IMG/VR virus record: IMGVR_UViG_3300017917_003859
Location: 91,028-155,027 of that record
Source of the DNA: a virus
Strand: one strand, 5' to 3'
Length of the DNA: 64,000 nt
The notes under the pieces are model-generated. The model made no database searches and had not been told where the DNA came from. It saw only the letters and a program-made list of their open reading frames with translations. Both the position numbers and the translations under genes were made by a program. Within the stretch, counting starts at the first letter, position 1, and each line of letters begins with the position of its first letter. Below are positions 3,127 through 33,920 of the stretch, one piece after another.

Positions 3127-3768
3127 ATGAAAAAATCACAACTTAGGCAAATAATTAAAGAAGAAATATTTAAAATATTAAATGAGAATATTTCTAAAAT
3201 CATAGATAATTTTGAACAAGGACTAATGGTTTATATTATGGATGCATATCAACGATTAGACAATGATGAAGCTGAGTTATTAGAACTAAATGAATTATAT
3301 GATTCTATAAATTGGTTTCTTAAAAATACCCCAGAAAAAGAGTTTATAGAATATGAAAAAGAAAATATGGAATTTTTTATAAATAATAGATCTCAAATTG
3401 AACATTATTTAATAGATAATATAAATGAACCTATTAAAGTTCAATGGCCCGGATTACCAGATGTATTTTATTATACTCCATTAGTAAAAAAGAATCAAAT
3501 CTGGATTAAATTAGGGACTACCCCTAATTCAAAATTAGACCCCAAATATGATTACTACAACCCCAGTGAAGATTTAGAGTTCCCTATACGAATTAAAAAT
3601 AAAGATGATTTTGAAAAATATTCTAAAGAATTAGAGGTAAAAGGGTATTATTGGTATGGAGGAAAACCCCCATCATCGTTTAACCCTGCAGAACAAACAA
3701 ACGGAATAGAATATCCTTTTAAATTATTAAGAATAGATAAAAATTCAAAACAGTTAGGATATAATTAA
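3127..3768 (+). CDS. Hypothetical protein with MKKSQLRQIIKEEI..LNE leader, inserted between the two polB halves
   Basis: Start reassigned to ATG 3127, downstream of ATATTTATA (3104-3112); leader shared with other ORFs. Confidence 0.75.
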   Translation: MKKSQLRQIIKEEIFKILNENISKIIDNFEQGLMVYIMDAYQRLDNDEAELLELNELYDSINWFLKNTPEKEFIEYEKENMEFFINNRSQIEHYLIDNINEPIKVQWPGLPDVFYYTPLVKKNQIWIKLGTTPNSKLDPKYDYYNPSEDLEFPIRIKNKDDFEKYSKELEVKGYYWYGGKPPSSFNPAEQTNGIEYPFKLLRIDKNSKQLGYN

Positions 3769-3792
3769 ACTAAAATCATTTTAATAAAAGTT

Positions 3793-4674
3793 ATGCAAAA
3801 TATTATTATAAGCGACACAGATAGTTTATACATCTGTTTAGGCCCTATCTTAGAACATATGCGCTCTCAAGGTATCGAAATCAACGACACTAACAAAAAT
3901 GAGATCATATTAAAATTAGCAAACCAAATACAAGAAGAATCAAACGCTAATTTAGATTCAATTAGTAAAAATTTATACAACATCACCCCAGGCTCTCACT
4001 ATTTCCAATTAAAACAAGAAGTAATATGTGCTGGTGTACTTACAACAGGTAAACGTCGTTATGCAATGTATGTTACTAATAAAGAAGGTGTACCTGTTGA
4101 GGAATTAGACATGAAAGGACTTGAATTAATGAAGTCCAACATGAATAAATTATTTAAAAAGTTTGGTGAAGACTTAATTAAGAATGTATTGTTTGGTAAA
4201 CCCAAAAATAAAATAGATAATTCAATAATTGAATTTTACAAATCACTTAAAACATTAGATCCAAGATCACTTGGTAAACCTACAGGAGTAAAACAAATAG
4301 AAGCATATTATGTTCCTGCTCGTGCTGGAGAAATGTTTAGTTCGTTTAAATTAAAAGCCCCAGCTAATACAAAAGCTGCTGTACGATATAATGATTTGCT
4401 TAAATTTAAAAAATTAGATAAAAAATATGAATCTATTATTGAAGGTGATAAAATATTTATTATTAATTTGAAGAAAAACCCATATAATTTAGAAACAATT
4501 GGTTTACCAAATGCTCAAGTACCTAAAGAAATAGAGGAATTTGTTAAAGCATATATTGATATTGAAGAAATATTTGAATCATTGTTAGCAAATAAATTGA
4601 AGAATTTATATGATGATTTAAAATGGGAGTTTCCTCCTCTTAATTCAAATGTTGGAAAATTCTTTGCCTTTTAA
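3793..4674 (+). CDS. polB: Family B DNA polymerase, C-terminal part (motif C palm plus thumb)
   Basis: SDTDS motif C at the N-terminus, KRRYA, KGLE; own AATAAAAGTT-ATG leader; ends KFFAF (clamp-binding-like). Confidence 0.92.
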   Translation: MQNIIISDTDSLYICLGPILEHMRSQGIEINDTNKNEIILKLANQIQEESNANLDSISKNLYNITPGSHYFQLKQEVICAGVLTTGKRRYAMYVTNKEGVPVEELDMKGLELMKSNMNKLFKKFGEDLIKNVLFGKPKNKIDNSIIEFYKSLKTLDPRSLGKPTGVKQIEAYYVPARAGEMFSSFKLKAPANTKAAVRYNDLLKFKKLDKKYESIIEGDKIFIINLKKNPYNLETIGLPNAQVPKEIEEFVKAYIDIEEIFESLLANKLKNLYDDLKWEFPPLNSNVGKFFAF

Positions 4675-4702
4675 ATTAAATTATTTATATTAAATAAAAG
4701 TT

Positions 4703-5443
4703 ATGATACAAAAATTCGAATTACAAGCAATTATCAACAAATATTACCTAAATGGTTTAGTTGAATCTACTAAATGGGATGTTAAAGATAATAAATTAAA
4801 TATTAAATTTACTTCACCTACTAGAGAAATGGTTGGTGAATTAATATGTGATAAATTTCCATTAGAGAATTCAACATTTGGTATTATAAATACTTCTCAA
4901 CTACTTAAATTAATTAATATTACATCAGGAGATGTATTGTTAAGTTTTGTTAAAAATAATAAAATATTTTCAAAATTAGTAATATCTGATAATCAATTCA
5001 CTACTTATTATACTTTAGCAGATATTTTAACTATACCTAAATCAGGAGAATATAATGGGCCTGATGAATTTGATATAGAAGCAATATTGGATAAAGATAT
5101 AATTAATTCTTTAATTAAAGCTAAAAATGCATTACCTGATAATTCTACAATGATTATTAGGCCATCTATGGGATTAGATGGTGATTTTCAATTAGAATTA
5201 ACATTTGGTGGAGATAATGAATATTCAAATAAAGTTTCTTATTTTCTTTCAAATTTTTCCAAACAAATTACCAATTCAACATTTGAACTAGCATTCAACT
5301 CAGATTTATTTAAAGAAATATTATCTGCTAATAAAGACGTAGATGAAGCTAAGTTATTTATTAATTTACAAGGATTAATTAAATTAGAATTTAAATCTAA
5401 AACAACAACAAATAAATATTATTTAGTTCAAAAAGAAATATAA
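4703..5443 (+). CDS. DNA sliding clamp (gp45/PCNA-like)
   Basis: 246 aa with a two-domain beta/alpha pattern, next to polB and in the same module as the clamp loader. Confidence 0.7.
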   Translation: MIQKFELQAIINKYYLNGLVESTKWDVKDNKLNIKFTSPTREMVGELICDKFPLENSTFGIINTSQLLKLINITSGDVLLSFVKNNKIFSKLVISDNQFTTYYTLADILTIPKSGEYNGPDEFDIEAILDKDIINSLIKAKNALPDNSTMIIRPSMGLDGDFQLELTFGGDNEYSNKVSYFLSNFSKQITNSTFELAFNSDLFKEILSANKDVDEAKLFINLQGLIKLEFKSKTTTNKYYLVQKEI

Positions 5444-5646
5444 TGTTAAATATAGTTAATCAATATATTGAATATCAAGGCTGTTTACATAAAATTTTAC
5501 GAACAGTTAAAGAAAGCAGTAAACCAATCATAGATGATTGGAAAGAACATTTAAATGCTGATTTAGTATTAAAAAATGAAGGAATATTTTATTTTGTTCA
5601 AAAAATGGGAGAAGCTGAAATTATTGAAGAAGATAATAAAGCTTGA
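5443..5646 (+). CDS. Hypothetical protein
   Basis: ORF coupled to the clamp gene. Confidence 0.6.
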   Translation: MLNIVNQYIEYQGCLHKILRTVKESSKPIIDDWKEHLNADLVLKNEGIFYFVQKMGEAEIIEEDNKA

Positions 5647-5704
5647 TAAGTAAATTAAAATTTATTATATTTATTAAAGTAAAACAGTTATAAAAATAAA
5701 ATTT

Positions 5705-5998
5705 ATGTCAAAATTAGAAGCAGTTTTTAATTCAATTATCGTTAAACCTCAAGAAGAGGAAGAAACAACCTACGGCTCAATTGTAGTTCCAGATTTAGGC
5801 AAAGAAAAAGGACTACGTGGAACTATTATTTCAATAGGCCCTGGTTACTACTCAGCCACAGGAACATTTGTTAATACTACTTTGGAAGAAGGACAGAAAG
5901 TAATTCTACCTCCAATAGGACCAGTTAAAATTGAACATGATGGTCAAGAATATTGGTCATGTCAAGAAAATCAAGTACTTGCAATCATTAATGATTAA
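5705..5998 (+). CDS. groES: Co-chaperonin GroES
   Basis: 97 aa; IIVKP, mobile loop TTYGSIVVP, IGPG, VLAII. Confidence 0.9.
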   Translation: MSKLEAVFNSIIVKPQEEEETTYGSIVVPDLGKEKGLRGTIISIGPGYYSATGTFVNTTLEEGQKVILPPIGPVKIEHDGQEYWSCQENQVLAIIND

Positions 5999-6008
5999 TT
6001 AAAAATCG

Positions 6009-8426
<2,418 letters not shown>

Positions 8427-8427
<1 letters not shown>

Positions 8428-8675
8428 TGGAAATTAAAGAAAACTACATACTAATTGCCACCAGGCGTGCGCCTGGTGATAATTGGGTTTTAGTAGATGA
8501 TGATAAACAAATTATTCATAAATCATTGACTGAAACATTAGAGGCTTATTTTCAAAAAACTCAAGCAAGATGTGATTTTAAACTTTCACCTTTGAAAGGT
8601 GAGTTATATATAATTACTACTGAAGAGGTAGCATCTCCTCCACCTAAGAAATTTAATTTATATGGGGATTACTAA
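8427..8675 (+). CDS. Hypothetical protein
   Basis: ORF coupled to groEL. Confidence 0.65.
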
Positions 8676-8697
8676 TATTTATAGTAAATATTAACTC

Positions 8698-9135
8698 ATG
8701 AAAAAATCTGAATTACGCCAAATCATTAAAGAAGAAATACATAAAGTATTAAATGAAATAACATATATTGGACCTGATGGAGAATTGATGGGAGATTTTA
8801 CTTTAAATCAACTCCAATTAACCCCAGAAGTAAAAAAATATATAGATAAAATAGTAGAAGATGCTAAAAATGATGGTGAATTTGAAAATTTAATTTCATT
8901 TGGCTATTTTGATACTGAATTACCTATTCATCTTCTTCAAAAATTTAATGGGGATATTATAGAAAAATTATTAGATGTCTCTCCTGAAGATTTAGAATAC
9001 TTAGAATCAGCTATAGAAGATTTAGAGGATCCTGAAGATTTAGAAGATTTAGATATTGATGATGATATTAAAGAAAAATTATATACCTCCATTAGCGATA
9101 GAGTAAAAAGTTATATAGAATCTAAAATAGAATAA
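8698..9135 (+). CDS. Acidic protein with MKKSELRQIIKEEI..LNE leader
   Basis: Leader, upstream ATATTTATA (8675-8683), EDLE repeats. Confidence 0.75.
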   Translation: MKKSELRQIIKEEIHKVLNEITYIGPDGELMGDFTLNQLQLTPEVKKYIDKIVEDAKNDGEFENLISFGYFDTELPIHLLQKFNGDIIEKLLDVSPEDLEYLESAIEDLEDPEDLEDLDIDDDIKEKLYTSISDRVKSYIESKIE

Positions 9136-9138
9136 GTT

Positions 9139-9498
9139 ATGAAACTAGAATTAGAAAAACTTTACAAAGAATATTGTGAAAGTGAATTAGAATCATTAAA
9201 GGGTGAAGATAAATTTATAGACATGATGTTAATGTTTGTAGAATTTAGATTATATGTAAGTGGTGGTAGTGAATATGGTTGTACGGTAAGTATGACAACT
9301 GTAAATAATTTTTTAGATGAAATATTCTTATATGATAATATGATGGATGATTGGGGTGGGGCATATAGAGGAGAGTGTTGTTGGGAAAAGTATAGTTCTT
9401 TAAAAAGATTAGTGAATGAAAGTGAATTAAAAGAAAATATTAAAATTGAAATATTAGAAGGTTATAAGAAAGAAAATGGAATGGATGAAGAATTCTAG
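9139..9498 (+). CDS. Hypothetical protein
   Basis: ORF only. Confidence 0.6.
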   Translation: MKLELEKLYKEYCESELESLKGEDKFIDMMLMFVEFRLYVSGGSEYGCTVSMTTVNNFLDEIFLYDNMMDDWGGAYRGECCWEKYSSLKRLVNESELKENIKIEILEGYKKENGMDEEF

Positions 9499-9542
9499 AT
9501 TTGGTTTTTTAAAAAAATTTTCATATATTAAAAATAAAAGTT

Positions 9543-10475
9543 ATGTCAAAAAGATTACACACTATTCTGAACGAAAAATATCGTCCTGATACTTTAGAAG
9601 GATATATTTGCAAAGATGAAATTAAAACTAAATTTGAGGAATTTATTAAACAACAAGATATTCCTCATCTTTTATTTGCTGGTAAACCAGGTACTGGCAA
9701 GACCACAATTGCTAAAATATTAACTAAAAATATTGACTGTGATTTTATTTACATTAATGCGACTGATGAACGTTCAATAGAAGTGATGAGAGATAAAGTA
9801 GGAGCATTTGCTGCTGCTGGTTCATTTAAGCCACTTAAAATAGTAATTTTAGATGAAGCAACTCATATACTTCAAGCATCACAAGTAGTTCTATTAAACA
9901 TGATAGAAACGTATAGTTTAACTACTCGTTTCATACTAACTGGTAACTACCCAGAACGACTTATACAACCGCTTAGAAGTAGATTACAAGAATTTGATTT
10001 AGTACCTCCAACTAAAAAAATAGTAGCTCAGCATATTGATGATATTTTAAATAAAGAAGGAATAGAACATACACTTGAAGATATAGCAACTATCATTAAA
10101 AAATCATACCCTGATTTTCGTAAAATACTCAATAATTGTCAGTTAAATACTGTTAATAATAAATTGGTTTTAACTAATTCAAATAATGATGATGATTATA
10201 AAGAAAACATTTTAAATGAACTTAAAACACCATCTACTAAATCATTTAATATTATTAGACAAATTATAGCAAATGCTGATTTAGATAATTTTGATGATTT
10301 ATATAAATTTTTATATGAAAAAATGAATGAATATTCTAAAGGTAATGAAGGTATAATAATTTGTACTTTAGAAGAATATCAATACCACTCAGTACTAGTT
10401 CTTGATAAAGAAATTAATATCATGGCTTGTATATCTAAAATATTAGAAACAATTTTAAATAAACGAATAATATGA
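9543..10475 (+). CDS. Clamp loader AAA+ subunit (RFC/gp44-like)
   Basis: EKYRP, Walker A GKPGTGKT, Walker B ILDEA, LRSR. Confidence 0.92.
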   Translation: MSKRLHTILNEKYRPDTLEGYICKDEIKTKFEEFIKQQDIPHLLFAGKPGTGKTTIAKILTKNIDCDFIYINATDERSIEVMRDKVGAFAAAGSFKPLKIVILDEATHILQASQVVLLNMIETYSLTTRFILTGNYPERLIQPLRSRLQEFDLVPPTKKIVAQHIDDILNKEGIEHTLEDIATIIKKSYPDFRKILNNCQLNTVNNKLVLTNSNNDDDYKENILNELKTPSTKSFNIIRQIIANADLDNFDDLYKFLYEKMNEYSKGNEGIIICTLEEYQYHSVLVLDKEINIMACISKILETILNKRII

Positions 10476-10639
10476 ACAACAACAAACACTTAACAATCGA
10501 AATTATTAGAACATTAGAATCTCTTTTACATAAAGAGTATCACCCAGATAATAGTATTATTACTAATCGTTTAGGATTTACTCCTAAACAAGAAGAAGAA
10601 ATTAGAAATAAAATTTTATCACTAATTAAAACCCTATAA
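10472..10639 (+). CDS. Small hypothetical protein (55 aa, not in the ORF track)
   Basis: MNNNKHLTIEII...LIKTL; fills the gap and overlaps the upstream stop (ATGA). Confidence 0.5.
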   Translation: MNNNKHLTIEIIRTLESLLHKEYHPDNSIITNRLGFTPKQEEEIRNKILSLIKTL

Positions 10640-10644
10640 TATAA

Positions 10645-10890
10645 ATGAAAGAACAAATACAAATGAAAGTAGATATTACTCAATCTACACCAATCAAATC
10701 CACAGACGGAAATCAAATATTTCAAGAAGCAGTAATACTTCGCAAAATCAGTAAATTTATTGCTGGTACAAGTGAAGATGCTGTTGTTCCAATTCCTGTA
10801 TTCATCGATACAAAAACAGGAAAAATATTAATTGAAATGTTACCTAAAGAGCTTCGAGCAGAATATGAAGAGTACAACAAAACAGCCTAA
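10645..10890 (+). CDS. Hypothetical protein
   Basis: ORF within the clamp-loader operon. Confidence 0.65.
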   Translation: MKEQIQMKVDITQSTPIKSTDGNQIFQEAVILRKISKFIAGTSEDAVVPIPVFIDTKTGKILIEMLPKELRAEYEEYNKTA

Positions 10891-11658: not shown

Positions 11659-11659
11659 T

Positions 11660-12613: not shown

Positions 12614-12644
12614 TTTTCTATATATTTATATATAAACATACGTT

Positions 12645-12833: not shown

Positions 12834-12862
12834 TTATTAACAACAAAACAACAATTAGTTTT

Positions 12863-14325: not shown

Positions 14326-15642
14326 ATGAATAAACCGTTATTTGTAATTAGTTGTGCCATCGACACATATAGTGGCTATGGGGCACGTTCTCGTGATATA
14401 GTAAAATCCATTATTGAATTAAAAAAAGATGAATGGGATATTAAAATAATGCCTCAACGTTGGGGTGACTGTAGTTGGGGTTTTATACAAGATAATCCTG
14501 AATGGGAATTCTTAACACAATATTTCCTTAATACTCCACAGTTAAATCAACAACCAGATATTTGGGCTCAAATTACAGTGCCTAATGAATTTCAACCTAT
14601 TGGAAAATACAATATAGGAATTACTGCGGGAATTGAAACCACAATTTGTGCCCCAGAATGGATTGAAGGAGTAAACCGAATGAATATTACTTGGGTTTCA
14701 TCAAACCATTCCAAAAAAGTATTTGAAGATACTAAATATAATAAACAAGATCCTCAAGGTAGAAATGTAGGAGTAGTACAATTAGAAAAACCAATTGAGG
14801 TAGTATTTGAGGGAGCAGATCTAAATAAATATAAATTATTAAGTGATGTTAAGTCAAGTGAAATTGATTTATCATCTATTAAAGAATCATTTTGTTATTT
14901 ATTTGTAGGCCACTGGATTAATTTAAATTCTCCATTAGGTGAAGATAGAAAAAATGTAGGTTTATTAATTAAAGCATTCTTTGAAACATTTAAAAATAAA
15001 CAAAATAAACCAGCATTAATTTTAAAAACATCAAGTGCTGTTAATTCATACATGGATAGGGATGCTATATTAAAAAACATACATGCTATTAAACAAACAG
15101 TAAACAGTACAAATTTACCTAATATTTATTTATTACATGGTGATTTTACTGATGCTGAAATGAATGAGCTTTATAATAATATTAAAGTAAAAGCTATGGT
15201 TTCATTAACTAAAGGAGAAGGTTTTGGTCGTCCATTACTTGAATTTAGTTTAGTTAAAAAACCTATTGTTACTACAAATTGGAGTGGACATATAGATTTC
15301 TTAAATAAAGCAAATGTTACTTTATTAGGTGGAGAATTAAAACCTGTGCACCCAGCAGTATCAAATCAATTTTTACTTAAAGAAAGTTCTTGGTTTAATG
15401 TAAATCCTGTAGAGGTTGGAGAAGCATTAATGGATGTTTATAAAAACTATGACAAATATCTACCAGGTGCTCGTAAACAAGGAGAACAAAATAAAGAGAA
15501 ATTTAGTTTTGATGCGATGAAGCAAGTTGTAAAAGAACAATTAGCTAAAGTACCTGAGTTTCCAAAACAAATTCAATTAAAATTGCCCTCTCTTCGTAAA
15601 ATTGAATTACCAAAACTTACTAAAATAGAAAACAATGATTAA
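14326..15642 (+). CDS. GT-B (GT4-like) glycosyltransferase
   Basis: SGYG, DRKN, GEGFGRPLLE. Confidence 0.88.
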   Translation: MNKPLFVISCAIDTYSGYGARSRDIVKSIIELKKDEWDIKIMPQRWGDCSWGFIQDNPEWEFLTQYFLNTPQLNQQPDIWAQITVPNEFQPIGKYNIGITAGIETTICAPEWIEGVNRMNITWVSSNHSKKVFEDTKYNKQDPQGRNVGVVQLEKPIEVVFEGADLNKYKLLSDVKSSEIDLSSIKESFCYLFVGHWINLNSPLGEDRKNVGLLIKAFFETFKNKQNKPALILKTSSAVNSYMDRDAILKNIHAIKQTVNSTNLPNIYLLHGDFTDAEMNELYNNIKVKAMVSLTKGEGFGRPLLEFSLVKKPIVTTNWSGHIDFLNKANVTLLGGELKPVHPAVSNQFLLKESSWFNVNPVEVGEALMDVYKNYDKYLPGARKQGEQNKEKFSFDAMKQVVKEQLAKVPEFPKQIQLKLPSLRKIELPKLTKIENND

Positions 15643-16183
15643 GCTAGTAGATTTACTTAAAGAAAATAGTGATAGTAAATACAAGTATGGATGTGTAATG
15701 TTATATTTTGATTTTCCCGAAATTAATAAAATACATGATGCTATCAACCCAAATGATATATATGAAGAAGATGGAGATAAAACTTTTGGATTAGAAGATG
15801 AACCCCATACAACTTTACTGTATGGTCTTCACCCTGAAGTTAGTTTAGATGAAGTTAAAAAAATATTAAATTCATACACTTATTATCCTTGTACTATCAA
15901 GAATGCTTCATTATTTAAAAATGAAAAATATGATGTATTAAAATTTGATGTTGAAGGAAAAAATTTACATGAAACTAATAATGATTTAAAACGATATCCA
16001 TTTACAAGTGATTACCCTGATTATCACCCCCACCTTACAATTGGATATATTAAACCTGGATTTGGAAAAAAGTATACTAAAATGTTAAAAGAGATAGAAT
16101 TCAAATTAATCCCCCAGTATGTAGTATATTCTCACCCAGATGGAACTAAAGATAAAATTAAAATAAAAGTAGAAAATTTGTAA
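15635..16183 (+). CDS. 2H phosphoesterase, Acb1/T4 gp57B-like, with MIKLVDLLKE leader
   Basis: Two HxT motifs (PHTTLLYG, PHLTIGY) about 74 aa apart. Confidence 0.75.
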   Translation: MIKLVDLLKENSDSKYKYGCVMLYFDFPEINKIHDAINPNDIYEEDGDKTFGLEDEPHTTLLYGLHPEVSLDEVKKILNSYTYYPCTIKNASLFKNEKYDVLKFDVEGKNLHETNNDLKRYPFTSDYPDYHPHLTIGYIKPGFGKKYTKMLKEIEFKLIPQYVVYSHPDGTKDKIKIKVENL

Positions 16184-24776: not shown

Positions 24777-24784
24777 AATTAGTT

Positions 24785-25981
24785 ATGAATAAATTAGTAA
24801 GCATAATAATTCCTATATATAACAGTGAAGAATTTCTAGATAAATGCATTCAAAGTGCTATAAATCAATCTTATAAGAATATTGAAATTGTTCTTGTTAA
24901 TGATGGTTCAACAGATTCGAGTAAATCAATATGTGATAGTTATGCTTCTAAAGATAATCGAATTAAAGTAATTCATAAAAATAATGGGGGGTTAGTTAGT
25001 TCTCGCAAAGCAGGACTTAAAGTCTCTACTGGGGAATATATTTTGTATATTGATGGAGATGATTGGATTGAACCTGAATTAGTACAACATTATATGAATC
25101 AAGTATTTGAATTTAATGCTGATGTTGTAATATCATCTCATATAGTGAATTTAGAAGGTAGAGAAGATATTTTACCAAATTCACTTCCACCCGGAGTTTA
25201 CAATAAAGATCAACTTAATTCAATTGTATACCCAAAAATGCTACATACTGGAAAATTCTCTCAGTTTGGCATATTTTCATATTCGTGGGGGAAATTATAT
25301 AAAAAAGAAATATTGTTTGAAAATCAATTAAATGTTGATGAAAGTATAACTATCGGAGAAGATGCATTATGTTTGTATCCTACATTATTAGATACTAATA
25401 AATTAGTTATTTTAAAACAACCTTATTATCATTATAGACAACGAGCTAATTCTTTAATTAAAACTTTAAGAACTATTGATATTCTTAAAATGCAAAAAGT
25501 ATATGATGACCTTAAAAATGTATTTTCCAACAAAAAAGTTTTAGATATAATGTTACCTCAATTACAACATTATCTTTTAAGTTTATTAATCATCAATACT
25601 AAAGGACCAGATTTCATTAATACAAATATATATCCATTTGATAATATTAATAATAAATCAAATCTAGTTATATATGGTGGAGGTACATTTGGGCAACATT
25701 TATATAAAAAAATCACCACTCATAGTTCTCACAACATAGTAGCTTGGGTAGATGAAAAATATAAACATTATTCCAAACTAAATCTCCCAGTAACTGGATT
25801 TGAGAGTATTCAAAATCTTGAATATGATGCTGTTTTGATAGCTTTAATTGATGAAGATAACTCTAATCAAGCATTATTAAAATTAATAAGTTATGGAGTA
25901 AATAATAAAAAAATAATTCAAATACCTTATTACAAAACTAACATACAAGAATCATTACTTAAATATGAAATTAAATTATAA
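24785..25981 (+). CDS. GT2 glycosyltransferase with C-terminal Rossmann-like domain
   Basis: VSIIIPIYN, NDGSTD, DGDD, GED; IYGGGTFG. Confidence 0.88.
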   Translation: MNKLVSIIIPIYNSEEFLDKCIQSAINQSYKNIEIVLVNDGSTDSSKSICDSYASKDNRIKVIHKNNGGLVSSRKAGLKVSTGEYILYIDGDDWIEPELVQHYMNQVFEFNADVVISSHIVNLEGREDILPNSLPPGVYNKDQLNSIVYPKMLHTGKFSQFGIFSYSWGKLYKKEILFENQLNVDESITIGEDALCLYPTLLDTNKLVILKQPYYHYRQRANSLIKTLRTIDILKMQKVYDDLKNVFSNKKVLDIMLPQLQHYLLSLLIINTKGPDFINTNIYPFDNINNKSNLVIYGGGTFGQHLYKKITTHSSHNIVAWVDEKYKHYSKLNLPVTGFESIQNLEYDAVLIALIDEDNSNQALLKLISYGVNNKKIIQIPYYKTNIQESLLKYEIKL

Positions 25982-26804
25982 AAATTTAGACTTAATTTTT
26001 CATGCCGGATCAAGTTTATTAGAAGGCCCAATATGGGATAACAAAAATAAATTAATATATTGCGTATCAATAGAACAAGGGCTAATTTACCAAATCAACC
26101 CATCCTCAGGAGAAGTACAATCATATCCTACTAAAGGAAATGTAGGGTGTGTAGCTTTAATCCCAGGTGGAGATTTAATTTCAGCAGAAAAAGAAGGTAT
26201 TTTTGTTACAAATCCTAAAACAAAAGAAAAAATATATATTGATCAATTTGAATCAAATCCCGATTTACGATATAATGATGGTAGATTTGATCCTGTTGGT
26301 AGATTTCTTGTTGGAACAAAAAGTGAAAAAGATTTTTTTCTTGAAAAAGAAATTGAGAAAGGTAAATTGTTTTCGTATTTTCAAGGTGAATGTAAAGTAT
26401 TATTAGATAATTTACTAATATCAAATGGAATTGGATTTTCTCTTGATAATAAAAAAATGTATTTTATAGACACTCCTACAAAAAAAGTAGCTCAATATGA
26501 ATATAATTTAAACACAGGGGATATTAAATTTGAAAAATATATAGTAGAAATTGATGGACCAGGATGGCCTGATGGTATGTGTGTTGATTTAGATGGGAAT
26601 ATTTGGGTAGCCGAATGGGAGGGATGGGGAATCAGAAAATGGGATGTAAATACTGGAAAAATGTTAGATGAAATACTTTTGCCTTGTCCAAGAGTAACTT
26701 CATGTTGTTTAGGTGGAGAAAATATGAATGAAATTTTTATTACAACCGCTAAAAGTGAAGGTAATATTTTTGGAGGAGGTTTATTTAAAACAAAATTAAA
26801 ATAA
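25965..26804 (+). CDS. SMP-30/gluconolactonase family protein
   Basis: LEGP.W, RYNDG, ISNG, PDGM. Confidence 0.88.
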   Translation: MKLNYKNLDLIFHAGSSLLEGPIWDNKNKLIYCVSIEQGLIYQINPSSGEVQSYPTKGNVGCVALIPGGDLISAEKEGIFVTNPKTKEKIYIDQFESNPDLRYNDGRFDPVGRFLVGTKSEKDFFLEKEIEKGKLFSYFQGECKVLLDNLLISNGIGFSLDNKKMYFIDTPTKKVAQYEYNLNTGDIKFEKYIVEIDGPGWPDGMCVDLDGNIWVAEWEGWGIRKWDVNTGKMLDEILLPCPRVTSCCLGGENMNEIFITTAKSEGNIFGGGLFKTKLK

Positions 26805-26807
26805 TAT

Positions 26808-27386
26808 ATGGCTACACCATCAAAATTTGATAATGATACTTTTTTAATGACTAGAGAACATTTAAATTCTTTTATTAATAGAGTAGCTAAAATATATAAT
26901 CAAGAAGGAAAAAAATTACTTGAAATAGGTTCCCAAGATAGATCTGAAGTTAAAGAAGCTTTTAATAAATGTAGTATTGAAACTCTAGACCTAGTATCTG
27001 ATTACAACCCCGATATTATAGGTGATATTACTAAATATAATGCTCATATAAACGATTCTACATATGATATTATAACTTGTTTAGAAATATTAGAACATAC
27101 TTTAAATCCATTTTCTGCTATAGAAGAATTAAGACGCATCTGTAAACATGAAGGATATATTTTGTTTTCTGCCCCATTAAATTGGAGAATTCATGGTCCT
27201 GTTCCTGATTGTTGGAGATTTACAGAATTTGGTTGGAGAGTATTATTAAAAGATTTTGATATTATTGAAATAGACAAATTAGAAACACCAGATAGGAATT
27301 TGTTTCCTATTAAATATAATATTTTAGCAAGATGTAATAAAAACAAAAATACTCAAGAACATGAATTAAAATTTCAAAGAATCTAA
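26808..27386 (+). CDS. SAM-dependent methyltransferase
   Basis: LEIG, EILEH, H.P.DCWRF. Confidence 0.8.
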   Translation: MATPSKFDNDTFLMTREHLNSFINRVAKIYNQEGKKLLEIGSQDRSEVKEAFNKCSIETLDLVSDYNPDIIGDITKYNAHINDSTYDIITCLEILEHTLNPFSAIEELRRICKHEGYILFSAPLNWRIHGPVPDCWRFTEFGWRVLLKDFDIIEIDKLETPDRNLFPIKYNILARCNKNKNTQEHELKFQRI

Positions 27387-27390
27387 ATTT

Positions 27391-28077
27391 ATGAAAATAC
27401 ATATATTTTATAGCCACTATAATGTAACTGGAACTGATAATAAAAGTAGACCAAACTGGTTTGATTATGAAAAATGTTTTGTTAATTTATTAGAAACTAT
27501 CAAAACCAAAAACAATATTATCCTTAATGTTGTTATGGATGGAAAAATAGAAAATAATTGGATTAATAAATACAAACAATATTTCAACACATATGAATTT
27601 ACAGGTGGTAATATGGAAATTGTTACTAAAGCTGTATATAATATTATAAAAGAATACAAATGTGATGATGGTGATTTGATTTATATATTAGAAAATGATT
27701 ATTTACATCTTGAAAATTGGAGTGATAAAGTAATTGAACTTTATAAAACATTTAATGGATTAAACTATATTAGTCTGTATGATCACAATGATAAATATTT
27801 TTTACCTCAATATGAAGATTTAATATCAAAAATAATAGTTACAAATTCTCATCATTGGAGGACAACTCCAAGTACTTGCGGTTCATATATTGTTCCAAAA
27901 CATATTTTTAATGATGATTATGAAATCCAAACCACAGTAATAGGGGATCATGTTAAACATGTTTACCTTAATGAACATAAAGGAAGATTTATACTAACAC
28001 CAGTTCCTGGTTTGTCAACTCATTGTATGGAATATTTATTAAGTCCTACTATTGATTGGCAAAAAATAAATAATTAA
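27391..28077 (+). CDS. Putative glycosyltransferase
   Basis: YILENDYLH, SLYDH.DKY, P.PG.STH. Confidence 0.55.
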   Translation: MKIHIFYSHYNVTGTDNKSRPNWFDYEKCFVNLLETIKTKNNIILNVVMDGKIENNWINKYKQYFNTYEFTGGNMEIVTKAVYNIIKEYKCDDGDLIYILENDYLHLENWSDKVIELYKTFNGLNYISLYDHNDKYFLPQYEDLISKIIVTNSHHWRTTPSTCGSYIVPKHIFNDDYEIQTTVIGDHVKHVYLNEHKGRFILTPVPGLSTHCMEYLLSPTIDWQKINN

Positions 28078-28722
28078 ATGAGAAAATATAAATACGATAC
28101 CCAAAGTTATAATTTTGCAGATGGTTTAAGAAATATTTTTGATATATATCATCTTGATAGAATAAATGAAAATAGAGATGTATTAAAACGAGAAGAAGAT
28201 CAAAGTACTAGATATCATAAATTATATTATGGGTGGGCCAGAACTGAAAAATTTACTAAAATGTATGAATCTTTAATTCAACATATAATTAAAAAACATG
28301 TATACAACAATGAATCTATAGTATACCAAGCCATTCCTACTTTTAGAATAGCCTTTCCTAACAACATAGCTGTTGGTGAATGGCATAAAGATAAATGGTA
28401 TAGAAATGGAGAATGGGCTTCTAAAGTAAAAGAAATGAATTTTTTCCTTCCTATCACAGATGCATTCGATACAAATACTATTTGGGCAGAAACAGAAGAA
28501 GATAAAGAAGATTTTATTCCTATGAATTGCAATTATGGAGAAATAATTCAGTGGGATGGATGTAATTTAACACATGGGAATAAAATTAATGAGACTGGGA
28601 GAACTAGAATTTCAATTGATTTTAGAGTCATAGAATATAAAAATTATATTCCAAGTGATCATGGATCAATAAACACAAAAACTCCATTTGCTATTGGAGG
28701 TTATTATAAATTAATGAAATAA
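28078..28722 (+). CDS. StrG-like 2OG-Fe(II) oxygenase-fold protein
   Basis: Q..PTFR, WHKD, HGN..N.TG.TR.S.DFR. Confidence 0.65.
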   Translation: MRKYKYDTQSYNFADGLRNIFDIYHLDRINENRDVLKREEDQSTRYHKLYYGWARTEKFTKMYESLIQHIIKKHVYNNESIVYQAIPTFRIAFPNNIAVGEWHKDKWYRNGEWASKVKEMNFFLPITDAFDTNTIWAETEEDKEDFIPMNCNYGEIIQWDGCNLTHGNKINETGRTRISIDFRVIEYKNYIPSDHGSINTKTPFAIGGYYKLMK

Positions 28723-28723
28723 T

Positions 28724-29506
28724 ATGGAAAAAATAAGTGTAATTATACCTACATTCAAGACACCTCAAGCTCTTGATTTATGCCTTAAATCAGCAATTTT
28801 AGGTCAACATGATAGAAAAAATCAAATTATTGTTGTTGTAGATGGACATTATGATATAAATAAAGAGGTACTTGAAAAATGGAAAGAACATATTGATGTA
28901 TTAAATCTAGAAGAAAATGTAGGAACAGTTAGAGCTACTAATTTAGGAGTATATAATGCCCAACATGAAAAAATATTAATAGCAAACGATGACAATGTGT
29001 TCCCTGATGATTGGGATTTAAATTTACTAGAAAGTTACTGGCCTAACTCAGTCATGTCTCCAAACCAAATTGAACCATACCCAAGTATTTTTTCTCAATT
29101 TATTATTGAAGATTTAGGACGTGATCCTAAAACATTTGATTTAGAAAAATTTTGGAAATTTGATAAGGAACATGCTTCTAGAGATAAAATAGATCAAACT
29201 GGTTCAACATTTCCATTTTTTATGAATAAAAGAGATTATATGCGAGTAGGTGGATTTGCTGAAGATTACCCTTCACCTAGTGGGTTTGTCGCTGATTGGG
29301 AATTTTTTATGAAATGTCAAATGAATGGATTAAATATGATGAGAGCACATAATTGTCATTTTTATCATTTTGTTTCATTAAGTGCTAAGACTCCTGAACA
29401 GTTAGCTCAATCAAAACAATATGAAATTGCTTGCCATGAATATGCTAAATATAAATGGGGTTCTTATATAAAGCATGATCCTAAAACTAATTTAAAATTT
29501 ATATAA
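28724..29506 (+). CDS. GT2 glycosyltransferase
   Basis: ISVIIPT, NDD, GGF, D.EF, HF.S. Confidence 0.85.
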   Translation: MEKISVIIPTFKTPQALDLCLKSAILGQHDRKNQIIVVVDGHYDINKEVLEKWKEHIDVLNLEENVGTVRATNLGVYNAQHEKILIANDDNVFPDDWDLNLLESYWPNSVMSPNQIEPYPSIFSQFIIEDLGRDPKTFDLEKFWKFDKEHASRDKIDQTGSTFPFFMNKRDYMRVGGFAEDYPSPSGFVADWEFFMKCQMNGLNMMRAHNCHFYHFVSLSAKTPEQLAQSKQYEIACHEYAKYKWGSYIKHDPKTNLKFI

Positions 29507-29554
29507 TTTAAATAGGCTTTAAAATATTTATTAGTATATTTAAAAAAAGAAATT

Positions 29555-30119
29555 ATGGGAGCTAAAAAATTATATATATGTTACTTGAAAAGTGATCCTA
29601 ATAAAGAACCAATAAATAGAATTAGTGCATATTCATACGAGGAAGCACTTGAATTTTTCTCTCAGAGGAAAAAAATAGATAAACAAGCATTTTTAAGTAT
29701 ATTTGAAATAGAGGTATATGAAACTGAATCTAAATAATTTTGGTAGTAAATTAAAAATTACTCAAAAAGAAGAAAAAACTAAATTTATTACTGAGGAGCA
29801 ATTGTTTATTGAAACGGTTGATCGATTAGATACATGTTGGAGTAAATCAAATAAATTATATGAAATATTTAAAATAAATGCTCTAGAATATGAAGAGGAT
29901 TTTTATCAAGTAATTGAAGATTTATTTTTACTTAAATATGGTCCTTGGAAAACAGAAATAGTAATGTGGTATATTTTCGGTAGAATAGATATCGATGGGA
30001 ATATGTATCCTTTAATAGTTCAACTAGATGAGGATGACGAAGAAAAAGAAGTACTCCTTAAAACTCCTAAAGAGTTGTGGGATTTTTTAATAATGGTAGA
30101 AAAAAAAAGAAAAAAATAA
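29555..30119 (+). CDS. Two hypothetical proteins (29555..29737, 29718..30119)
   Basis: Overlapping ORFs after the promoter at 29513. Confidence 0.6.
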
Positions 30120-30120
30120 T

Positions 30121-30411
30121 ATGAAACTTTGTATATCTTGTGGAAAAGAAATACACCCAAAACGTTTGGAAATTCTTCCTAACGCAACTAAATGTGTAGA
30201 TTGTTCAACCACAAATAAAAAAGCAGGTGTAACTGTTACTAAAGGAAAGGGAGACCATACTTACAATGACATAGTAATTATGGATCATGAAGACTATCTT
30301 AAATATCAAGAACTAGAAAACAAAACCTACAAACGTAGAACAGATGAAATATCTCATCCTGATGAAACAGATGATGTTGAAGACACTGAATCTACTGAAC
30401 CTAATATTTAA
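30121..30411 (+). CDS. DksA/TraR-type C4 zinc-finger protein
   Basis: CISCGKEIHPKRLEILP.ATKCVDC. Confidence 0.75.
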   Translation: MKLCISCGKEIHPKRLEILPNATKCVDCSTTNKKAGVTVTKGKGDHTYNDIVIMDHEDYLKYQELENKTYKRRTDEISHPDETDDVEDTESTEPNI

Positions 30412-30416
30412 TTAGT

Positions 30417-31106
30417 ATGCCTAAAGCAAAACCATTAACTAAAGAACAAGTACTAATGGCTATGCAGCATACCAAATCAAATAAAGCTGCGGCCCGTTAT
30501 TTAAATTGCTCATACATTCACTACAAAAGGTATGCCAAAATGTACCGTGAATTTGATGGTGGAAGAACACTATTTGAAATCCATAAAAATCAATGTGGTA
30601 AAGGAATTTCTAAATATGGATCAGGAAATAATGCAATGCAAGCCAGAAAAAACTGGAGAGTAATAGATGTGGTTGAGGGAAGACTATCCCCACATCATTA
30701 CAAACCTGAATTAATTAAACAAAAAATGATTGAGGAAGGATTATTGAAGGAGGAATGTGCGTTGTGTGGTTTTCATGAGCGAAGAGTAAATGACTATAAA
30801 ATACCCTTAATATTAAATTTCAAAGATAATAATTCAAATCATTATAATTTAGGAAATGTTAGATTTTTGTGTTACAATTGTTATTTTTTAAATATTGGAA
30901 ATATTTTCAATCAACAAGACATGAAACAATTGGAAACGCACCAACCAACTTTTGGTATTACTAAAACACAAATTGGAGATAGAAAATTTGAAAAAGCAAT
31001 AGATTTCCAATTAGATGAATTCCAATTAGCCCAATTAGAAAAACTAGGCCTTTATCAGCCACCCAAACCCGAGGATGATGGTTCTGAGTTTATTTCAAGA
31101 CTTTAA
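30417..31106 (+). CDS. HTH plus degenerate HNH-fold protein
   Basis: AAARYLNCSY helix-turn-helix-like segment; CALC...N.RFLCYNCY. Confidence 0.6.
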   Translation: MPKAKPLTKEQVLMAMQHTKSNKAAARYLNCSYIHYKRYAKMYREFDGGRTLFEIHKNQCGKGISKYGSGNNAMQARKNWRVIDVVEGRLSPHHYKPELIKQKMIEEGLLKEECALCGFHERRVNDYKIPLILNFKDNNSNHYNLGNVRFLCYNCYFLNIGNIFNQQDMKQLETHQPTFGITKTQIGDRKFEKAIDFQLDEFQLAQLEKLGLYQPPKPEDDGSEFISRL

Positions 31107-31118
31107 ATATTTATTATC

Positions 31119-31581
31119 ATGAAACATCAAAAACATGATAAGATAGTTAAAGACTACCAAAACCAAAAATCAGAGCATCTTGATAAGTTGGCTACTAAAA
31201 TGTTGAAAAATGATGAGAAGATGCAAAAGTTAAAAACTAAAAAAATTAATAAAAATTTCCTAAACTTATTTTAATATGAAGCCAAAAGAATTTAAAGTTA
31301 ATACACTTGAAGATTTCCAACAAATGGTAGATAATAAAACCTTTAGTATATCTGAGGCTTTAGTAAATTCTATTTTAAATAATTTAAAGACACGTAAAAA
31401 AAACATACATGTTCTTTCTGTAAAATGTATTAATGAGAATACAGAATTTGATATAACTTTGGAAAAGCGTCACTTTGTTGAAACTCTTAAAGAAAATTTA
31501 AAATATTATGAAGAGCGCGAAATGTATGAAGAGTGTTCGAAAATAAATAAAGCTATTAAAGATTTAACAAAAACTAAATAA
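31119..31581 (+). CDS. Two hypothetical proteins (31119..31274, not in the track; 31276..31581)
   Basis: ORFs after ATATTTATT at 31107. Confidence 0.55.
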
Positions 31582-31600
31582 TTCTGCAATATGTATAGTC

Positions 31601-31741
31601 ATGGCAAAATTAAAAGAACAAATCATTAGTTTTTTCAACAAATTCAAGAAAAAACGCAAGGGTATACATAGTAAGAAAAAATCTAGTAAACTTAAAACTA
31701 GCAAAAATTACAAAAAACCATATAAAGGACAAGGTAGATGA
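31601..31741 (+). CDS. Small Lys-rich peptide ending YKGQGR (46 aa, not in the track)
   Basis: Clean ORF after ATATGTATA 31589; stop overlaps the next ATG. Confidence 0.6.
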   Translation: MAKLKEQIISFFNKFKKKRKGIHSKKKSSKLKTSKNYKKPYKGQGR

Positions 31742-32265
31742 AGCGCTCAGAACTCAAACAAATTATTAAGGAAGAATTAGCAGAAGCTAAGAAAAAAGAT
31801 AAAACAGGTTTATCATTTGCTCTAGCAGCAAACCTTGAAAAATACGGAAAACCTCAAACCCCAAAAGGCGCTAAACCTGTTGATTTTACTAAAAAACAAG
31901 AAAAACACGTAAAGAAAACAGCAGAAAAACTTAAAAAATCAATTAAAGAAGATTTAGGTAACTACATGTTTTTCCAAAACCTTAAAACCATTAAACAAAT
32001 GGTTGATGATTTACTTAAGTTAGATGAAAAAATGGTTGATGGTATTTTAGCAAGTGGGCATGATTGGGCTGAAGATCATATTGCAACATCAAAAGATGAT
32101 GTTGAAGAAGTACATAATTTTCTAATGAATAAAAAAGTTGCTATGCCTGTTGGGATGAATGAAAAGAAACAATTGTCTCCTAAACAAAAGAAAATAGCAG
32201 CAGCTGCTCCACCAGAAGATGAAATAACGGGTGCTGATTTTAAAGTATTAAGAAATAAAAAATAA
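31738..32265 (+). CDS. Protein with MKRSELKQIIKEELAE leader
   Basis: Shared leader; internal IKE/MNE sites. Confidence 0.7.
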   Translation: MKRSELKQIIKEELAEAKKKDKTGLSFALAANLEKYGKPQTPKGAKPVDFTKKQEKHVKKTAEKLKKSIKEDLGNYMFFQNLKTIKQMVDDLLKLDEKMVDGILASGHDWAEDHIATSKDDVEEVHNFLMNKKVAMPVGMNEKKQLSPKQKKIAAAAPPEDEITGADFKVLRNKK

Positions 32266-32322
32266 ATTGAAGGCTTGGCTTCCAATGTAAATTAATATAT
32301 ATTTATATTAAACAATTAAACA

Positions 32323-32721
32323 ATGAAACAACAACTCAACGAAGAATTCTGTCGCATGCAAAAACTTGCAGGAATTAAATTAAATGAAAATGAAAACTCA
32401 CGTGAAGGAATTATAAGCTTTGGTCCATTTAAAAATGTAGAATGGTATTTACGTGACAATAATCAAGTATTTTTAACTGTTACTGAAAGTGATAATTTTA
32501 GAAAAATAGAAAATGAACTTGAATACACTAGTGATGAACTTACTGATGAACAGAAATCATTTTTAGATAATGAAGTAAATAATTTAGCTGAGGAAATGAG
32601 TGATTATTTAATGTCTATTGGAGTTAAAAATGAAATATATGATAATCCAATTGGTTATGGTCAAGAAATTGACAATTTAGTGGTTGCTTTTGATAAAAAT
32701 GATTTATCTAAACTTAAATAA
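32323..32721 (+). CDS. Protein with MKQQLNEEF.RMQKLAGI.LNE leader
   Basis: LNE-containing leader, upstream ATATTTATA 32299. Confidence 0.7.
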   Translation: MKQQLNEEFCRMQKLAGIKLNENENSREGIISFGPFKNVEWYLRDNNQVFLTVTESDNFRKIENELEYTSDELTDEQKSFLDNEVNNLAEEMSDYLMSIGVKNEIYDNPIGYGQEIDNLVVAFDKNDLSKLK

Positions 32722-32745
32722 TAGAATTATATAAAAATTAAATAA

Positions 32746-32781
32746 AAGGCTTGGGAAACCAAGCCTTCTTTCTTATATTTA
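32746..32781 (+). terminator. Hairpin terminator fused with promoter
   Basis: AAGGCTTGG-GAAA-CCAAGCCTT, pyrimidine tract, then TATATTTA. Confidence 0.75.
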
Positions 32782-32798
32782 CGTTAAATAAATAAGTT

Positions 32799-33260
32799 AT
32801 GAAAGTAGTTACAGACAACAGTGTATTCCCTCCCCGCAAACATTACGAGGATGTAGAATTAAAATTTACAAAATTTACCCCAAAATGTCGTGTTCTCCCA
32901 GCAAATTATTTTGAAGAACCAAACACCCATTTTATCCTTAAAGCTAGATATGAACCTGGTGAAAATAAATTTTTCCCAATGGGTGGATTTGAAGTAAAAC
33001 ATTCCGAAGGAGGCACATACAATTATTATTTAGATGAAGTAATTGTTCATCCGTATGAATTAGGAATGAATAAATTTTTCACTAAAGCCCCACCAGAAAT
33101 TAAAGAAAAAGTAAAAGACCCAAATGCTCCTAAAGGAAAACGTGGTCGTAAAGCATTAGATCCTGAAGTAAAAGCTGCTAAAGAAGCAACAAAATTGGCT
33201 GAAGCTGAGGAAAGACGTAAGCGAAGCGGTGGAAAACGTGGAAGACCGAAGAAGTCATAA
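32799..33260 (+). CDS. Protein with AT-hook-like basic tail
   Basis: KGKRGRK and GKRGRPKK. Confidence 0.65.
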   Translation: MKVVTDNSVFPPRKHYEDVELKFTKFTPKCRVLPANYFEEPNTHFILKARYEPGENKFFPMGGFEVKHSEGGTYNYYLDEVIVHPYELGMNKFFTKAPPEIKEKVKDPNAPKGKRGRKALDPEVKAAKEATKLAEAEERRKRSGGKRGRPKKS

Positions 33261-33313
33261 TATGTATAATAGTCATGAACGACGAATATCAAACTTATCA
33301 ATATTGGAATAAT

Positions 33314-33574
33314 ATGAAAAAACAACAACTCAAACAAATAATCAGAGAAGAAGTACGCAAAGTATTAACTGAAGGATTAAAATTTGGAAATGTAGGAAAA
33401 GGTGAAGAATATTTTGCTACTGAAGATTTTAGTATTTTTAAAAAAGGTGATAAAGTATATGTAGATACTGTTAGAAATTCAGGAACTGAAGTTGTTCTTG
33501 AATTATCTAATGATGCTGGAGAGCATGATTCTATTAAAGGTGATTTAAACGACGAAATTGAAGTATTTGATTAA
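33314..33574 (+). CDS. Protein with MKKQQLKQIIREEV..LTE leader
   Basis: Shared leader; start reassigned. Confidence 0.7.
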   Translation: MKKQQLKQIIREEVRKVLTEGLKFGNVGKGEEYFATEDFSIFKKGDKVYVDTVRNSGTEVVLELSNDAGEHDSIKGDLNDEIEVFD

Positions 33575-33575
33575 T

Positions 33576-33920
33576 ATGAAAAAAATTGAATTAAAAGAAA
33601 TTATACGTAAAGAAGTACGCGAAGCTCTAGACTCAGAATTCGAAAAGGCTCAAGACAAATTATATACTTCAGTAACTGGAAAAGAACCAGGTTCAAAAGG
33701 TTTAAATAAATTTAGAACCGATTCTAGTAATCCTAACAAAAAATATATAGTATCATATTGGTATACTACTAATAATGGTAATGATGTTGATAACGATTAT
33801 ATAACAGATGTTATAGCTACTTCTCCTGAAGAAGCTATTGAGGTGGTAATGAATAATAGGTTTGAGTATGGTGTTCCTAGAACTGCTAAAAATTTTAAAG
33901 CAACAGAACAAAAAAATTAA
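33576..33920 (+). CDS. Protein with MKKIELKEIIRKEV leader
   Basis: Shared leader; start reassigned. Confidence 0.7.
   Translation: MKKIELKEIIRKEVREALDSEFEKAQDKLYTSVTGKEPGSKGLNKFRTDSSNPNKKYIVSYWYTTNNGNDVDNDYITDVIATSPEEAIEVVMNNRFEYGVPRTAKNFKATEQKN

Follow-up and report, generated by a model that had tools for sequence, protein, structure and literature searches.

Seven unrelated small proteins encoded in the window (the whole stretch of 64,000 nucleotides analysed, which is the last 64 kb of the 155 kb genome of an uncultured T4-like phage of Flavobacteria) each carry at the N-terminus a short leader peptide belonging to one of three interchangeable types. We consider it likely (probability about 0.7), judging from the sequences, that these leaders form an expanded, multi-class capsid-targeting system, by which the proteins would be loaded into the head as in T4 and then clipped. 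The same leader occurs here on more than 100 protein families, compared with few proteins in T4. The relevant features are as follows.

1356..4674, + strand: DNA polymerase gene split by 3127 into halves 1356-3104 and 3793-4674, with PHROG DNA polymerase matches on both halves.
3104..3112, + strand: promoter-like ATATTTATA, of the type preceding structural genes (class ATATTTATAATAAA); further copies at 8675-8683, 32299-32307, 33260-33268 and 31589-31597.
3127..3768, + strand: leader-1 gene, 213 aa; leader at residues 1-20, ending ILNE.
8698..9135, + strand: leader-1 gene in the slot between GroEL and clamp loader; 145 aa, with VLNE at the end of the leader.
15635..16183, + strand: leader-2 gene; 10-aa leader MIKLVDLLKE in the T4 capsid-targeting register, with the heptad at residues 4-10.
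31738..32265, + strand: leader-1 gene, 175 aa; early LAE site at residue 16, Lys-rich linker, conserved 'YMFFQNLKTI' domain.
32323..32721, + strand: leader-3 gene, 132 aa; N-terminus (..FCRMQKLAGIKLNE) copies the C-terminal tail of the putative scaffold and adds an L-x-E site.
33314..33574, + strand: leader-1 gene opening a tandem pair; 86 aa from the ATG at 33314, with VLTE at the end of the leader.
33576..33920, + strand: leader-1 gene, 114 aa; leader ending ALD, not L-x-E.

The sequence-only reading had picked out leader 1 at the starts of five genes (3127, 8698, 31738, 33314 and 33576), and all five hold. The core [LIV][KR]x[LIV][IV][KR][EK]E[LIV] (LKQIIKEE-type) occurs exactly five times in a six-frame translation of the window, always 5–6 residues after the ATG, and a sixth leader-1 copy lies elsewhere in the genome at 21633. 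A scan of the genome with a leader HMM, as that reading had suggested, gave six N-terminal matches at E<1e-8, the next reaching only ~0.01. When 223 N-termini were compared with one another in an unbiased way, leader pairs scored 34–56, whereas internal control segments reached 32 at most. The bodies behind the leader are mutually unrelated by blastp, again as claimed. Across 80 viral loci, leader 1 heads 168 ORFs, which are often arranged in tandem and whose cargos fall into ~128 unrelated families. Its position is strictly N-terminal (6/6 in the genome and ~160/168 in the viral loci); since the leader Met serves as the start in ~160/168 cases, the in-frame upstream ATG at 33275 is an unlikely start of 33314.

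The end of leader 1 is marked by a sharp boundary, with conservation of 2.3–5.3 bits at residues 1–14, ~2 bits at L18 and E20, and ~0.1 bit from residue 21 onwards. In the viral loci, 93 of 142 leaders have an [LI]xE that ends at residue 20, and 122 of 142 have one that ends within residues 15–24. In the window, six of the seven genes have a leader ending in L/I-x-Glu, the exception being 33576 with ALD, which belongs to the ~14% of leader-1 copies without an [LI]xE site. In T4, an Asp at the cut position permits targeting and blocks processing (PMC9026906).

The leader is virus-specific: 596 Gb of cellular genomes yielded one match, itself a phage contig. A search of a 5.8-billion-protein set with residues 1–40 of the 8698 protein returned full-length orthologues only, because a 20-aa tag cannot reach significance there. 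Further, cultured phages searched by tblastn with the consensus leader gave nothing useful, and the leader motif strings were not found in the literature. Two other candidate tags were set aside. The terminase N-terminus (MSQDLKQIIREEYIKC) matches the leader HMM but is conserved terminase sequence in all relatives, and the leader-like C-terminus of a 545-aa head protein was dropped as evidence, its conservation being absent in relatives.

Two more genes had been proposed to carry related leaders, and 15635 (MIKLVDLLKE) and 32323 (..RMQKLAGIKLNE) are indeed real members of two further leader classes. The 'LIKE' inside 6009, put forward at the same time, is a meaningless chance occurrence, because [LI]xE is found 1.43 times per 100 aa genome-wide. 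The T4 heptad Φ-x-x-Φ-Φ-x-E, which the T4 record contains in IPII, IPIII and Alt, is present at residues 4–10 in 13/13 leader-2 genes, with a background of 0.0029 per position. The full T4 capsid-targeting template (Φ4, acid 6, Φ7, Φ8, Glu10) is matched by four N-termini, compared with 0.12 expected, and by leader 2 in 13/13 copies, 15635 among them. Leader 1 consists of two tandem copies of the same heptad, not in the T4 register, and leader 3 carries the heptad in 9/16 copies.

Leader 3 is identical in sequence to the terminal peptide of the putative scaffold (scaffold alignment A5). The motif R[MFW]QKLAG[IL] forms the extreme scaffold C-terminus in five genomes and several loci, and it lies near the N-terminus of ~20 small proteins; its distribution is bimodal, being confined to the scaffold C-terminus or to a position 8–11 aa after the Met of small proteins. 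The scaffold is a provisional assignment made from position, composition and a weak local hhalign match to T4 gp22 (shared LTESQK; P 0.006, probability 6.5%). No match between the scaffold and T4 gp22 was obtained with BLASTP, and gp22 is without a leader-3-like tail. The [LI]xE density of the scaffold is 6.4 per 100 aa, a 4.5-fold enrichment over the genome-wide value. Scaffold tails bind the capsid protein in other phages, and the same is assumed here by analogy.

As the sequence-only reading had anticipated, the genome encodes a gp21-type prohead protease (Peptidase_S77, PF03420; E 1.3e-30) at genome positions 40077-40682, which is also present in every near-complete relative. As to co-occurrence of leader and protease, the protease is found on 15/35 leader contigs, compared with ~11.8 expected from completeness, and on all three contigs that are at least 89% complete. 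The L/I-x-E in which the leaders terminate is the site of a gp21-type protease, and cleavage there is predicted.

Homologous cargos exchange leaders with the junction exactly at the Glu, and three unrelated peptide classes thereby share one amino-acid boundary of exchange. The 8698 cargo recurs with leader 3 in locus L019 (E 1e-8) and with leader 1 in L121, directly after the protease. Similarly, the 31738 cargo domain has leader 1 in L023 and L026 and the leader-2 type MIKLASLLKE in L033, L043 and L047. Exchanges were also observed in an ART-like family (leader 1 to 2) and in L045/L076 (leader 1 to 3). In relatives, leader genes are sited within the head module: in L121, leader-1 genes flank the protease, filling the gp67/gp68 slot and forming an array directly after it, and in G005 the protease and the scaffold have two leader-3 genes between them. 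The cultured relative Flavobacterium phage vB_FspM_immuto has leader 1 on immuto26A_176, _177 and _191 and leader-3 genes at 25094 and 111708.

With a median length of 117 aa, the cargos are small, and they are soluble (TM-like in 3/194, compared with 17/227 in the genome). Scanning 128 tagged proteins against Pfam revealed hardly any domains; the 128 cargo families include an ADP-ribosyltransferase fold (Tpt1/DarT-like) and an Acb1-like esterase. The latter is represented in the window by the 15635 cargo, an Acb1-like 2H phosphoesterase (Pfam Acb1 1.9e-7, above the cut-off) with both H-x-T motifs, at 58 and 133.

The capsid loading proposed in the sequence-only reading has indirect support from several independent lines: the gp21-type protease, leaders that end in its L/I-x-E site, their interchange on one cargo, the scaffold-tail copy and the leader genes within head modules of relatives. 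In the proposed mechanism, the leader would form a short amphipathic helix at the N-terminus, by which the protein docks in the core of the prohead during assembly. The Φ-Φ-x-Glu terminating each leader would be the site at which the gp21-type protease of the phage strips it off at head maturation, freeing a small soluble cargo. The freed cargo would be retained in the head and then enter the host along with the DNA, where it may act against host defences. Leader 2 (15635) would be the direct counterpart of the 10-residue capsid targeting sequence of T4, and leader 1 (3127, 8698, 31738, 33314 and 33576) a doubled version of the T4 heptad. Leader 3 (32323) would be a copy of the scaffold C-terminal tail with an added cleavage site, and would therefore occupy the binding site of the scaffold.

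The T4 capsid targeting sequence, reportedly treated by Mullaney and Black in 1996, is so far known for only a few proteins within a single narrow group of phages. On the internal proteins IPI–III and Alt, it is removed by the prohead protease gp21 (PMC9026906, PMC3012670). In both phages a short N-terminal peptide ending in L/I-x-Glu heads otherwise unrelated proteins and an S77 protease is encoded; in both, too, the cargos are diverse, evolve quickly and count an ADP-ribosyltransferase-fold enzyme among them. In length and register, leader 2 agrees with the T4 sequence (Φ4, acid 6, Φ7, Φ8, E10). In comparison, the main leader here is 20 aa long, with a doubled heptad and another sequence; at least three interchangeable classes occur in one genome; 128 cargo families were found in a small sample, compared with a handful in T-even phages; and the host belongs to the Bacteroidota.

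Encapsulin-type cargo-loading peptides bind the inside of an HK97-fold shell. Leader 3 resembles these peptides and the coat-binding scaffold tails of P22 in reusing the peptide with which the phage's own scaffold ends, but it is N-terminal and followed by a protease site, and capsid binding is here assumed. In the giant phages phiKZ and SPN3US, many head-internal proteins are cut after Glu by a diverged gp21 homologue (PMC5694885, PMC7411985). The likeness to these ejection proteins lies in propeptides cleaved by a gp21-like protease, the cleavage being a prediction in the present case. To our knowledge, giant-phage propeptides are long and protein-specific, whereas here one portable 10–20-aa tag is found on many proteins.

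If the leaders work as in T4, a 10–20-residue motif would mark the proteins injected by a large clade of aquatic phages, most of them uncultured. These proteins would comprise more than 100 families that are unannotated and unrelated to one another, with ADP-ribosyltransferase-like and Acb1-like enzymes among them. The tags would then provide a sequence handle for first-strike anti-defence effectors in metagenomes and lead directly to new proteins for anti-defence and host takeover, besides offering natural modular tags for putting foreign proteins inside capsids. The scaffold-tail copy in leader 3 suggests how such tags originate. The chances are about even that aquatic T4-like Bacteroidota phages possess plug-in addressing with at least 3–4 interchangeable head-loading tags, one of them copied from the scaffold tail, and deliver hundreds of still-unknown protein families with their DNA.

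Amphipathic K/E/I/L helices are frequent in AT-rich genomes, which counts against the capsid-targeting reading, as do the leader-1 copies without an [LI]xE site, the partial promoter evidence, the provisional identity of the scaffold and the lack of such a tail in T4 gp22. As generic amphipathic helices, the leaders might instead dock onto a non-capsid partner, such as a host or phage hub protein, the phage GroEL/GroES, or a protease using a timing degron. The location of tagged genes in replication and accessory regions, the phage-encoded GroEL adjoining 8698 and the lack of the Glu site in some copies would agree with this. We nevertheless regard it as unlikely, since it leaves the scaffold-tail copy unexplained and accounts neither for the match to the T4 register nor for the leader genes adjoining the protease in L121 and G005. 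It is highly improbable that a modifying enzyme recognises the leader, in the manner of RiPP-type leaders. Such a role would suit one leader on many unrelated bodies and tandem gene arrays, but no enzyme family tracks the leader among the recurrent neighbours of the 80 loci, which are backbone genes instead (FAD-oxidoreductase-like in 17/80, AAA_28 in 12, GIY-YIG-like in 12 and terminase in 10), and the tagged genes of the window are scattered with no neighbour in common.

Tagged genes do sit inside core operons, as the earlier reading stated: 3127 splits the DNA polymerase gene, and 8698 has GroEL and the clamp loader as its neighbours. In the relatives G004 and G005, the two polymerase halves form an uninterrupted reading frame, and the slot of 8698 is empty. 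We doubt that 3127 is a selfish element, such as a homing endonuclease, with an incidental leader. The gene interrupts an otherwise contiguous polymerase gene and is sited elsewhere in relatives (cargo orthologues in L006 and L007, 77%, in another genomic context), but accessory genes that carry a promoter of their own should also show such mobility. No nuclease family (GIY-YIG, HNH, LAGLIDADG or PD-(D/E)xK) was matched in Pfam, PHROGs or the ESM Atlas, and no known fold was found for the cargo, its structure model (pLDDT 46) being unusable and uninformative and without an Atlas match.

Hypervariable arrays, gene gain and loss between close relatives, and the upstream DNA common to 3127 and 8698 could also be explained if the conserved 5' end were a DNA- or mRNA-level feature, either a recombination handle or a translation-initiation enhancer, with no peptide role. 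This is very unlikely: the many synonymous changes and the retention of the leader in genomes of 29–38% GC indicate selection on the peptide, upstream DNA is otherwise unconserved among tagged genes, and three unrelated peptide classes are swapped at one amino-acid boundary. The leader DNA could aid recombination as a side effect. For the same reasons of peptide-level conservation, and with several tagged genes lacking their own promoter, the portable module of the sequence-only reading survives as a peptide leader, modular and interchangeable on the same cargo, and is unsupported as a DNA cassette of promoter plus leader.

The statement that most tagged genes lie downstream of ATAT[TG]TATA is only roughly correct. 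The motif stands at −23/−24 of 3127, 8698 and 32323, at −54 of 33314 and at −149 of 31738; 15635 has none, and 33576, which begins 2 nt past the stop of 33314, is co-transcribed and has no promoter of its own. Genome-wide, the motif precedes 4/10 tagged genes, compared with 27/217 others (p=0.03). A promoter PWM trained on structural genes gave a good structural-type promoter for only three window genes; 32323 has a structural-type promoter, at rank 14 of 227. The scaffold–MCP operon itself has a different promoter. Across the genome, the promoter-like ATATTTATA motif occurs in 39 copies on the + strand, compared with five on the − strand.

The N-terminal leaders are best explained as candidate capsid-loading tags, a reading to which we give a probability of roughly 0.7 on convergent, indirect evidence. 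The known kind to which such a system belongs is the capsid targeting sequence (CTS) of T4 internal proteins, which is removed by the prohead protease gp21 (S77 family). Compared with the T4 CTS, the tags, their multiple exchangeable classes and the far larger range of cargos (the protein bodies behind the leaders) are new here, and a literature search for this leader system found no paper describing it.

Leader 1 is conserved at the peptide level. Its five starts in the sequence-only reading (genes 3127, 8698, 31738, 33314 and 33576, named by window start) all read as written, and the description of nearly the same leader on unrelated bodies is borne out: the leader HMM gives six N-terminal matches at E<1e-8, set apart from everything else, and the proteins show no relatedness behind residue 22. 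Translating the window in all six frames yields five copies of the core motif, each directly behind an ATG, and the rest of the genome adds a sixth. When all N-termini were compared without bias, pairs of leaders scored far higher than internal control segments. Leu, Arg and Ile codons vary freely between copies, upstream DNA is conserved only between 3127 and 8698, and gene 33576 starts 2 nt past the 33314 stop; the proposed 'promoter plus leader' module therefore fails as a common DNA cassette.

The window covers bases 91028-155027 of the virus record, which is single, 155,027 bp long, 28.6% GC and about 95% complete, carries nearly all its genes on the + strand, and is a T4-like phage with a T4-type terminase. 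Its nearest cultured relative is Flavobacterium phage vB_FspM_immuto, with Microcystis phage Mel-JY01 farther off. The head genes and an adjacent gene are as follows.

Portal: Portal_T4, 1.6e-67
Major capsid protein: Gp23, 1.6e-74
Prohead protease: Peptidase_S77, 1.3e-30
Genome 38438-40075: 545-aa protein, N-terminus MKTLQE, immediately 5' of the protease gene

The gp21-type head protease that the loading proposal calls for is encoded. Between protease and capsid genes lies an acidic protein with 6.4 [LI]xE per 100 aa (1.43 genome-wide), which would fit the expected look of a T4-type scaffold substrate; a common LTESQK motif gives a hint of homology to T4 gp22. The start of the 545-aa protein resembles that of the T4 CTS (MKTYQE). 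Its orthologues begin MKTLQT, MRTLQE and MKSIKQ, and LKE|G and LNE|N joints are scattered along it.

In the T4 record, IPII and IPIII begin MKTYQEFIAE and Alt begins MELITELFDE, and in all three, residues 4-10 form the heptad Φ-x-x-Φ-Φ-x-E. Residues 4 and 7 of the T4 CTS are needed for targeting, and 8 and 10 for processing (PMC9026906). Leader 2 (gene 15635, MIKLVDLLKE) has the heptad at this same position in 13 of 13 copies, and four N-termini in this genome match the full T4 template, against 0.12 expected. Leader 1 has two heptads (residues 6-12 and 14-20). Leader 3 (gene 32323) includes R[MFW]QKLAG[IL]. This motif has two strictly separate locations: it forms the scaffold's final residues in every genome examined, or lies 8-11 residues past the Met of small proteins, with [IL]-x-E next. 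A fourth N-terminal class, M[ED]NFDLKK[FY]L[VA]ENKL, has no copy in this genome; it is exchanged with leader 1 on a cargo of loci L036/L040 and occurs at these sites.

Immuto (MW353175): 1803, 103806 and 118632
Viral locus L015: 2483
Viral locus L061: 512

Homologous cargos bear differing leaders, with Glu as the junction. The 8698 cargo stands under leader 3 in one locus (L019), the 31738 cargo under a leader-2 type in three (L033/L043/L047), leaders 1 and 3 are swapped between L045 and L076, and one protein of a relative (G004) carries a tandem of leaders 1 and 3. On the GKQVGTLYHFT cargo, the leader is of class 1 in L018/L039/L061 and of class 2 in L014 and in this genome.

Genome 82056-82607, some 9 kb 5' of the window: leader-2 gene, MIKLIDLLNE|GKQVGTLYHFT..

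This family is predicted, with moderate confidence, to have a fold like that of the NAD-dependent ADP-ribosyltransferase-fold transferases (Tpt1, KptA, DarT), which recalls T4's packaged Alt, and the gene is a possible Alt counterpart. Gene 15635 has as its cargo a 2H phosphoesterase of the Acb1-like type, in which both H-x-T motifs are present.

The leader pattern had at least 597 matches in IMG/VR, and 80 loci were kept. Among the matches listed, these hold 168 leader ORFs by HMM, almost all at ATG and frequently with five to seven such small genes in a row, and 147 unique tagged proteins fall into 128 cargo clusters. Information content, 2.3-5.3 bits across residues 1-14, is still about 2 bits at both L18 and E20; beginning with residue 21 it drops to about 0.1 bit. 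Cargos are small (median 117 aa), membrane-like segments are rarer in them than in the genome's proteins overall, and almost none of the tagged cargos had a Pfam domain. Cellular genomes (596 Gb) gave one confirmed leader match, on a contig that is itself a phage head module. The counts agree with the expected co-occurrence with a gp21-like protease: of 35 leader contigs tested, each of which CheckV estimates to be part of a genome of roughly 150-200 kb, 15 carry an S77 protease (about 11.8 expected if each genome has one), as do 3/3 of those at least 89% complete.

Leader genes also sit among head genes. In L121, terminase, portal and a conserved head gene are followed by a pair of leader-1 genes, another gene and the protease; directly 3' of the protease, genes with leader 1 or leader 2 form an array, and one member has a cargo related to 8698. 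This 49.5-kb contig (CAZDEU010000005.1), placed in a MAG labelled 'uncultured Bacteroidales', is part of a T4-like phage, as its terminase, portal, protease and leader-gene arrays show. Two leader-3 genes separate protease and scaffold in relative G005, and in G024 the next gene 3' of the protease opens with the core of leader 1 and weakly matches the scaffold.

Three rival readings were considered. A docking helix for a partner other than the capsid is unlikely, leaving both the head-module positions and the scaffold-tail copy unexplained. That the conservation is purely a DNA-level feature is very improbable, being contradicted by the synonymous variation, and a RiPP-like recognition sequence is likewise very improbable, a search for the partner enzyme among recurrent neighbours in the 80 loci having found none.

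Genes 3127 and 8698 are mobile accessory genes.

Window 1356-4674: split DNA polymerase, 582-aa and 293-aa ORFs

The polymerase is split by a 688-bp insert whose sole gene is the tagged 3127; in G004 and G005 the polymerase gene is unbroken and reads in frame, and 3127 orthologues are located elsewhere in L006/L007. G004 and G005 have no gene in the 8698 slot, which a truncated copy occupies in three loci (L009:3001-3165, L010:136-300, L012:3001-3165). These 54-aa orthologues (leader plus 34 residues; 144-145 aa at full length elsewhere) may represent a decaying cargo gene. Adjacent paralogues at window 34259-34693 and 34701-35093, with the common N-terminus M[KE][DK]EFVTYEQALAL[KE]ELGFDE, appear to be whole-length relatives rather than tag bearers.

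Two promoter classes were found in the genome. The early-type composite TTAGGCTTACAAA-N14-TATATTTAC has about 12 copies in window 50300-63800, each 5' of a small gene (examples below). The second class, ATATTTATAATAAA, which we infer to be late, lies about 25 nt 5' of structural genes; the scaffold-capsid operon has a promoter of another class. A PWM trained on structural genes only ranks 32323 14th, 8698 15th and 3127 25th among 227 genes, and in the remaining tagged genes the motif is weak or missing. A terminator hairpin, AAGGCTTGGGAAACCAAGCCTT, recurs, followed directly by TATATTTAC..TTAAATAAATAAGTT-ATG; they resemble portable terminator-promoter cassettes that delimit small gene units.

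Window 50625-50660, 54855-54890 and 60100-60135: composite promoters
Window 32746-32767, 33945-33970, about 45880 and about 51500: AAGGCTTGGGAAACCAAGCCTT hairpins
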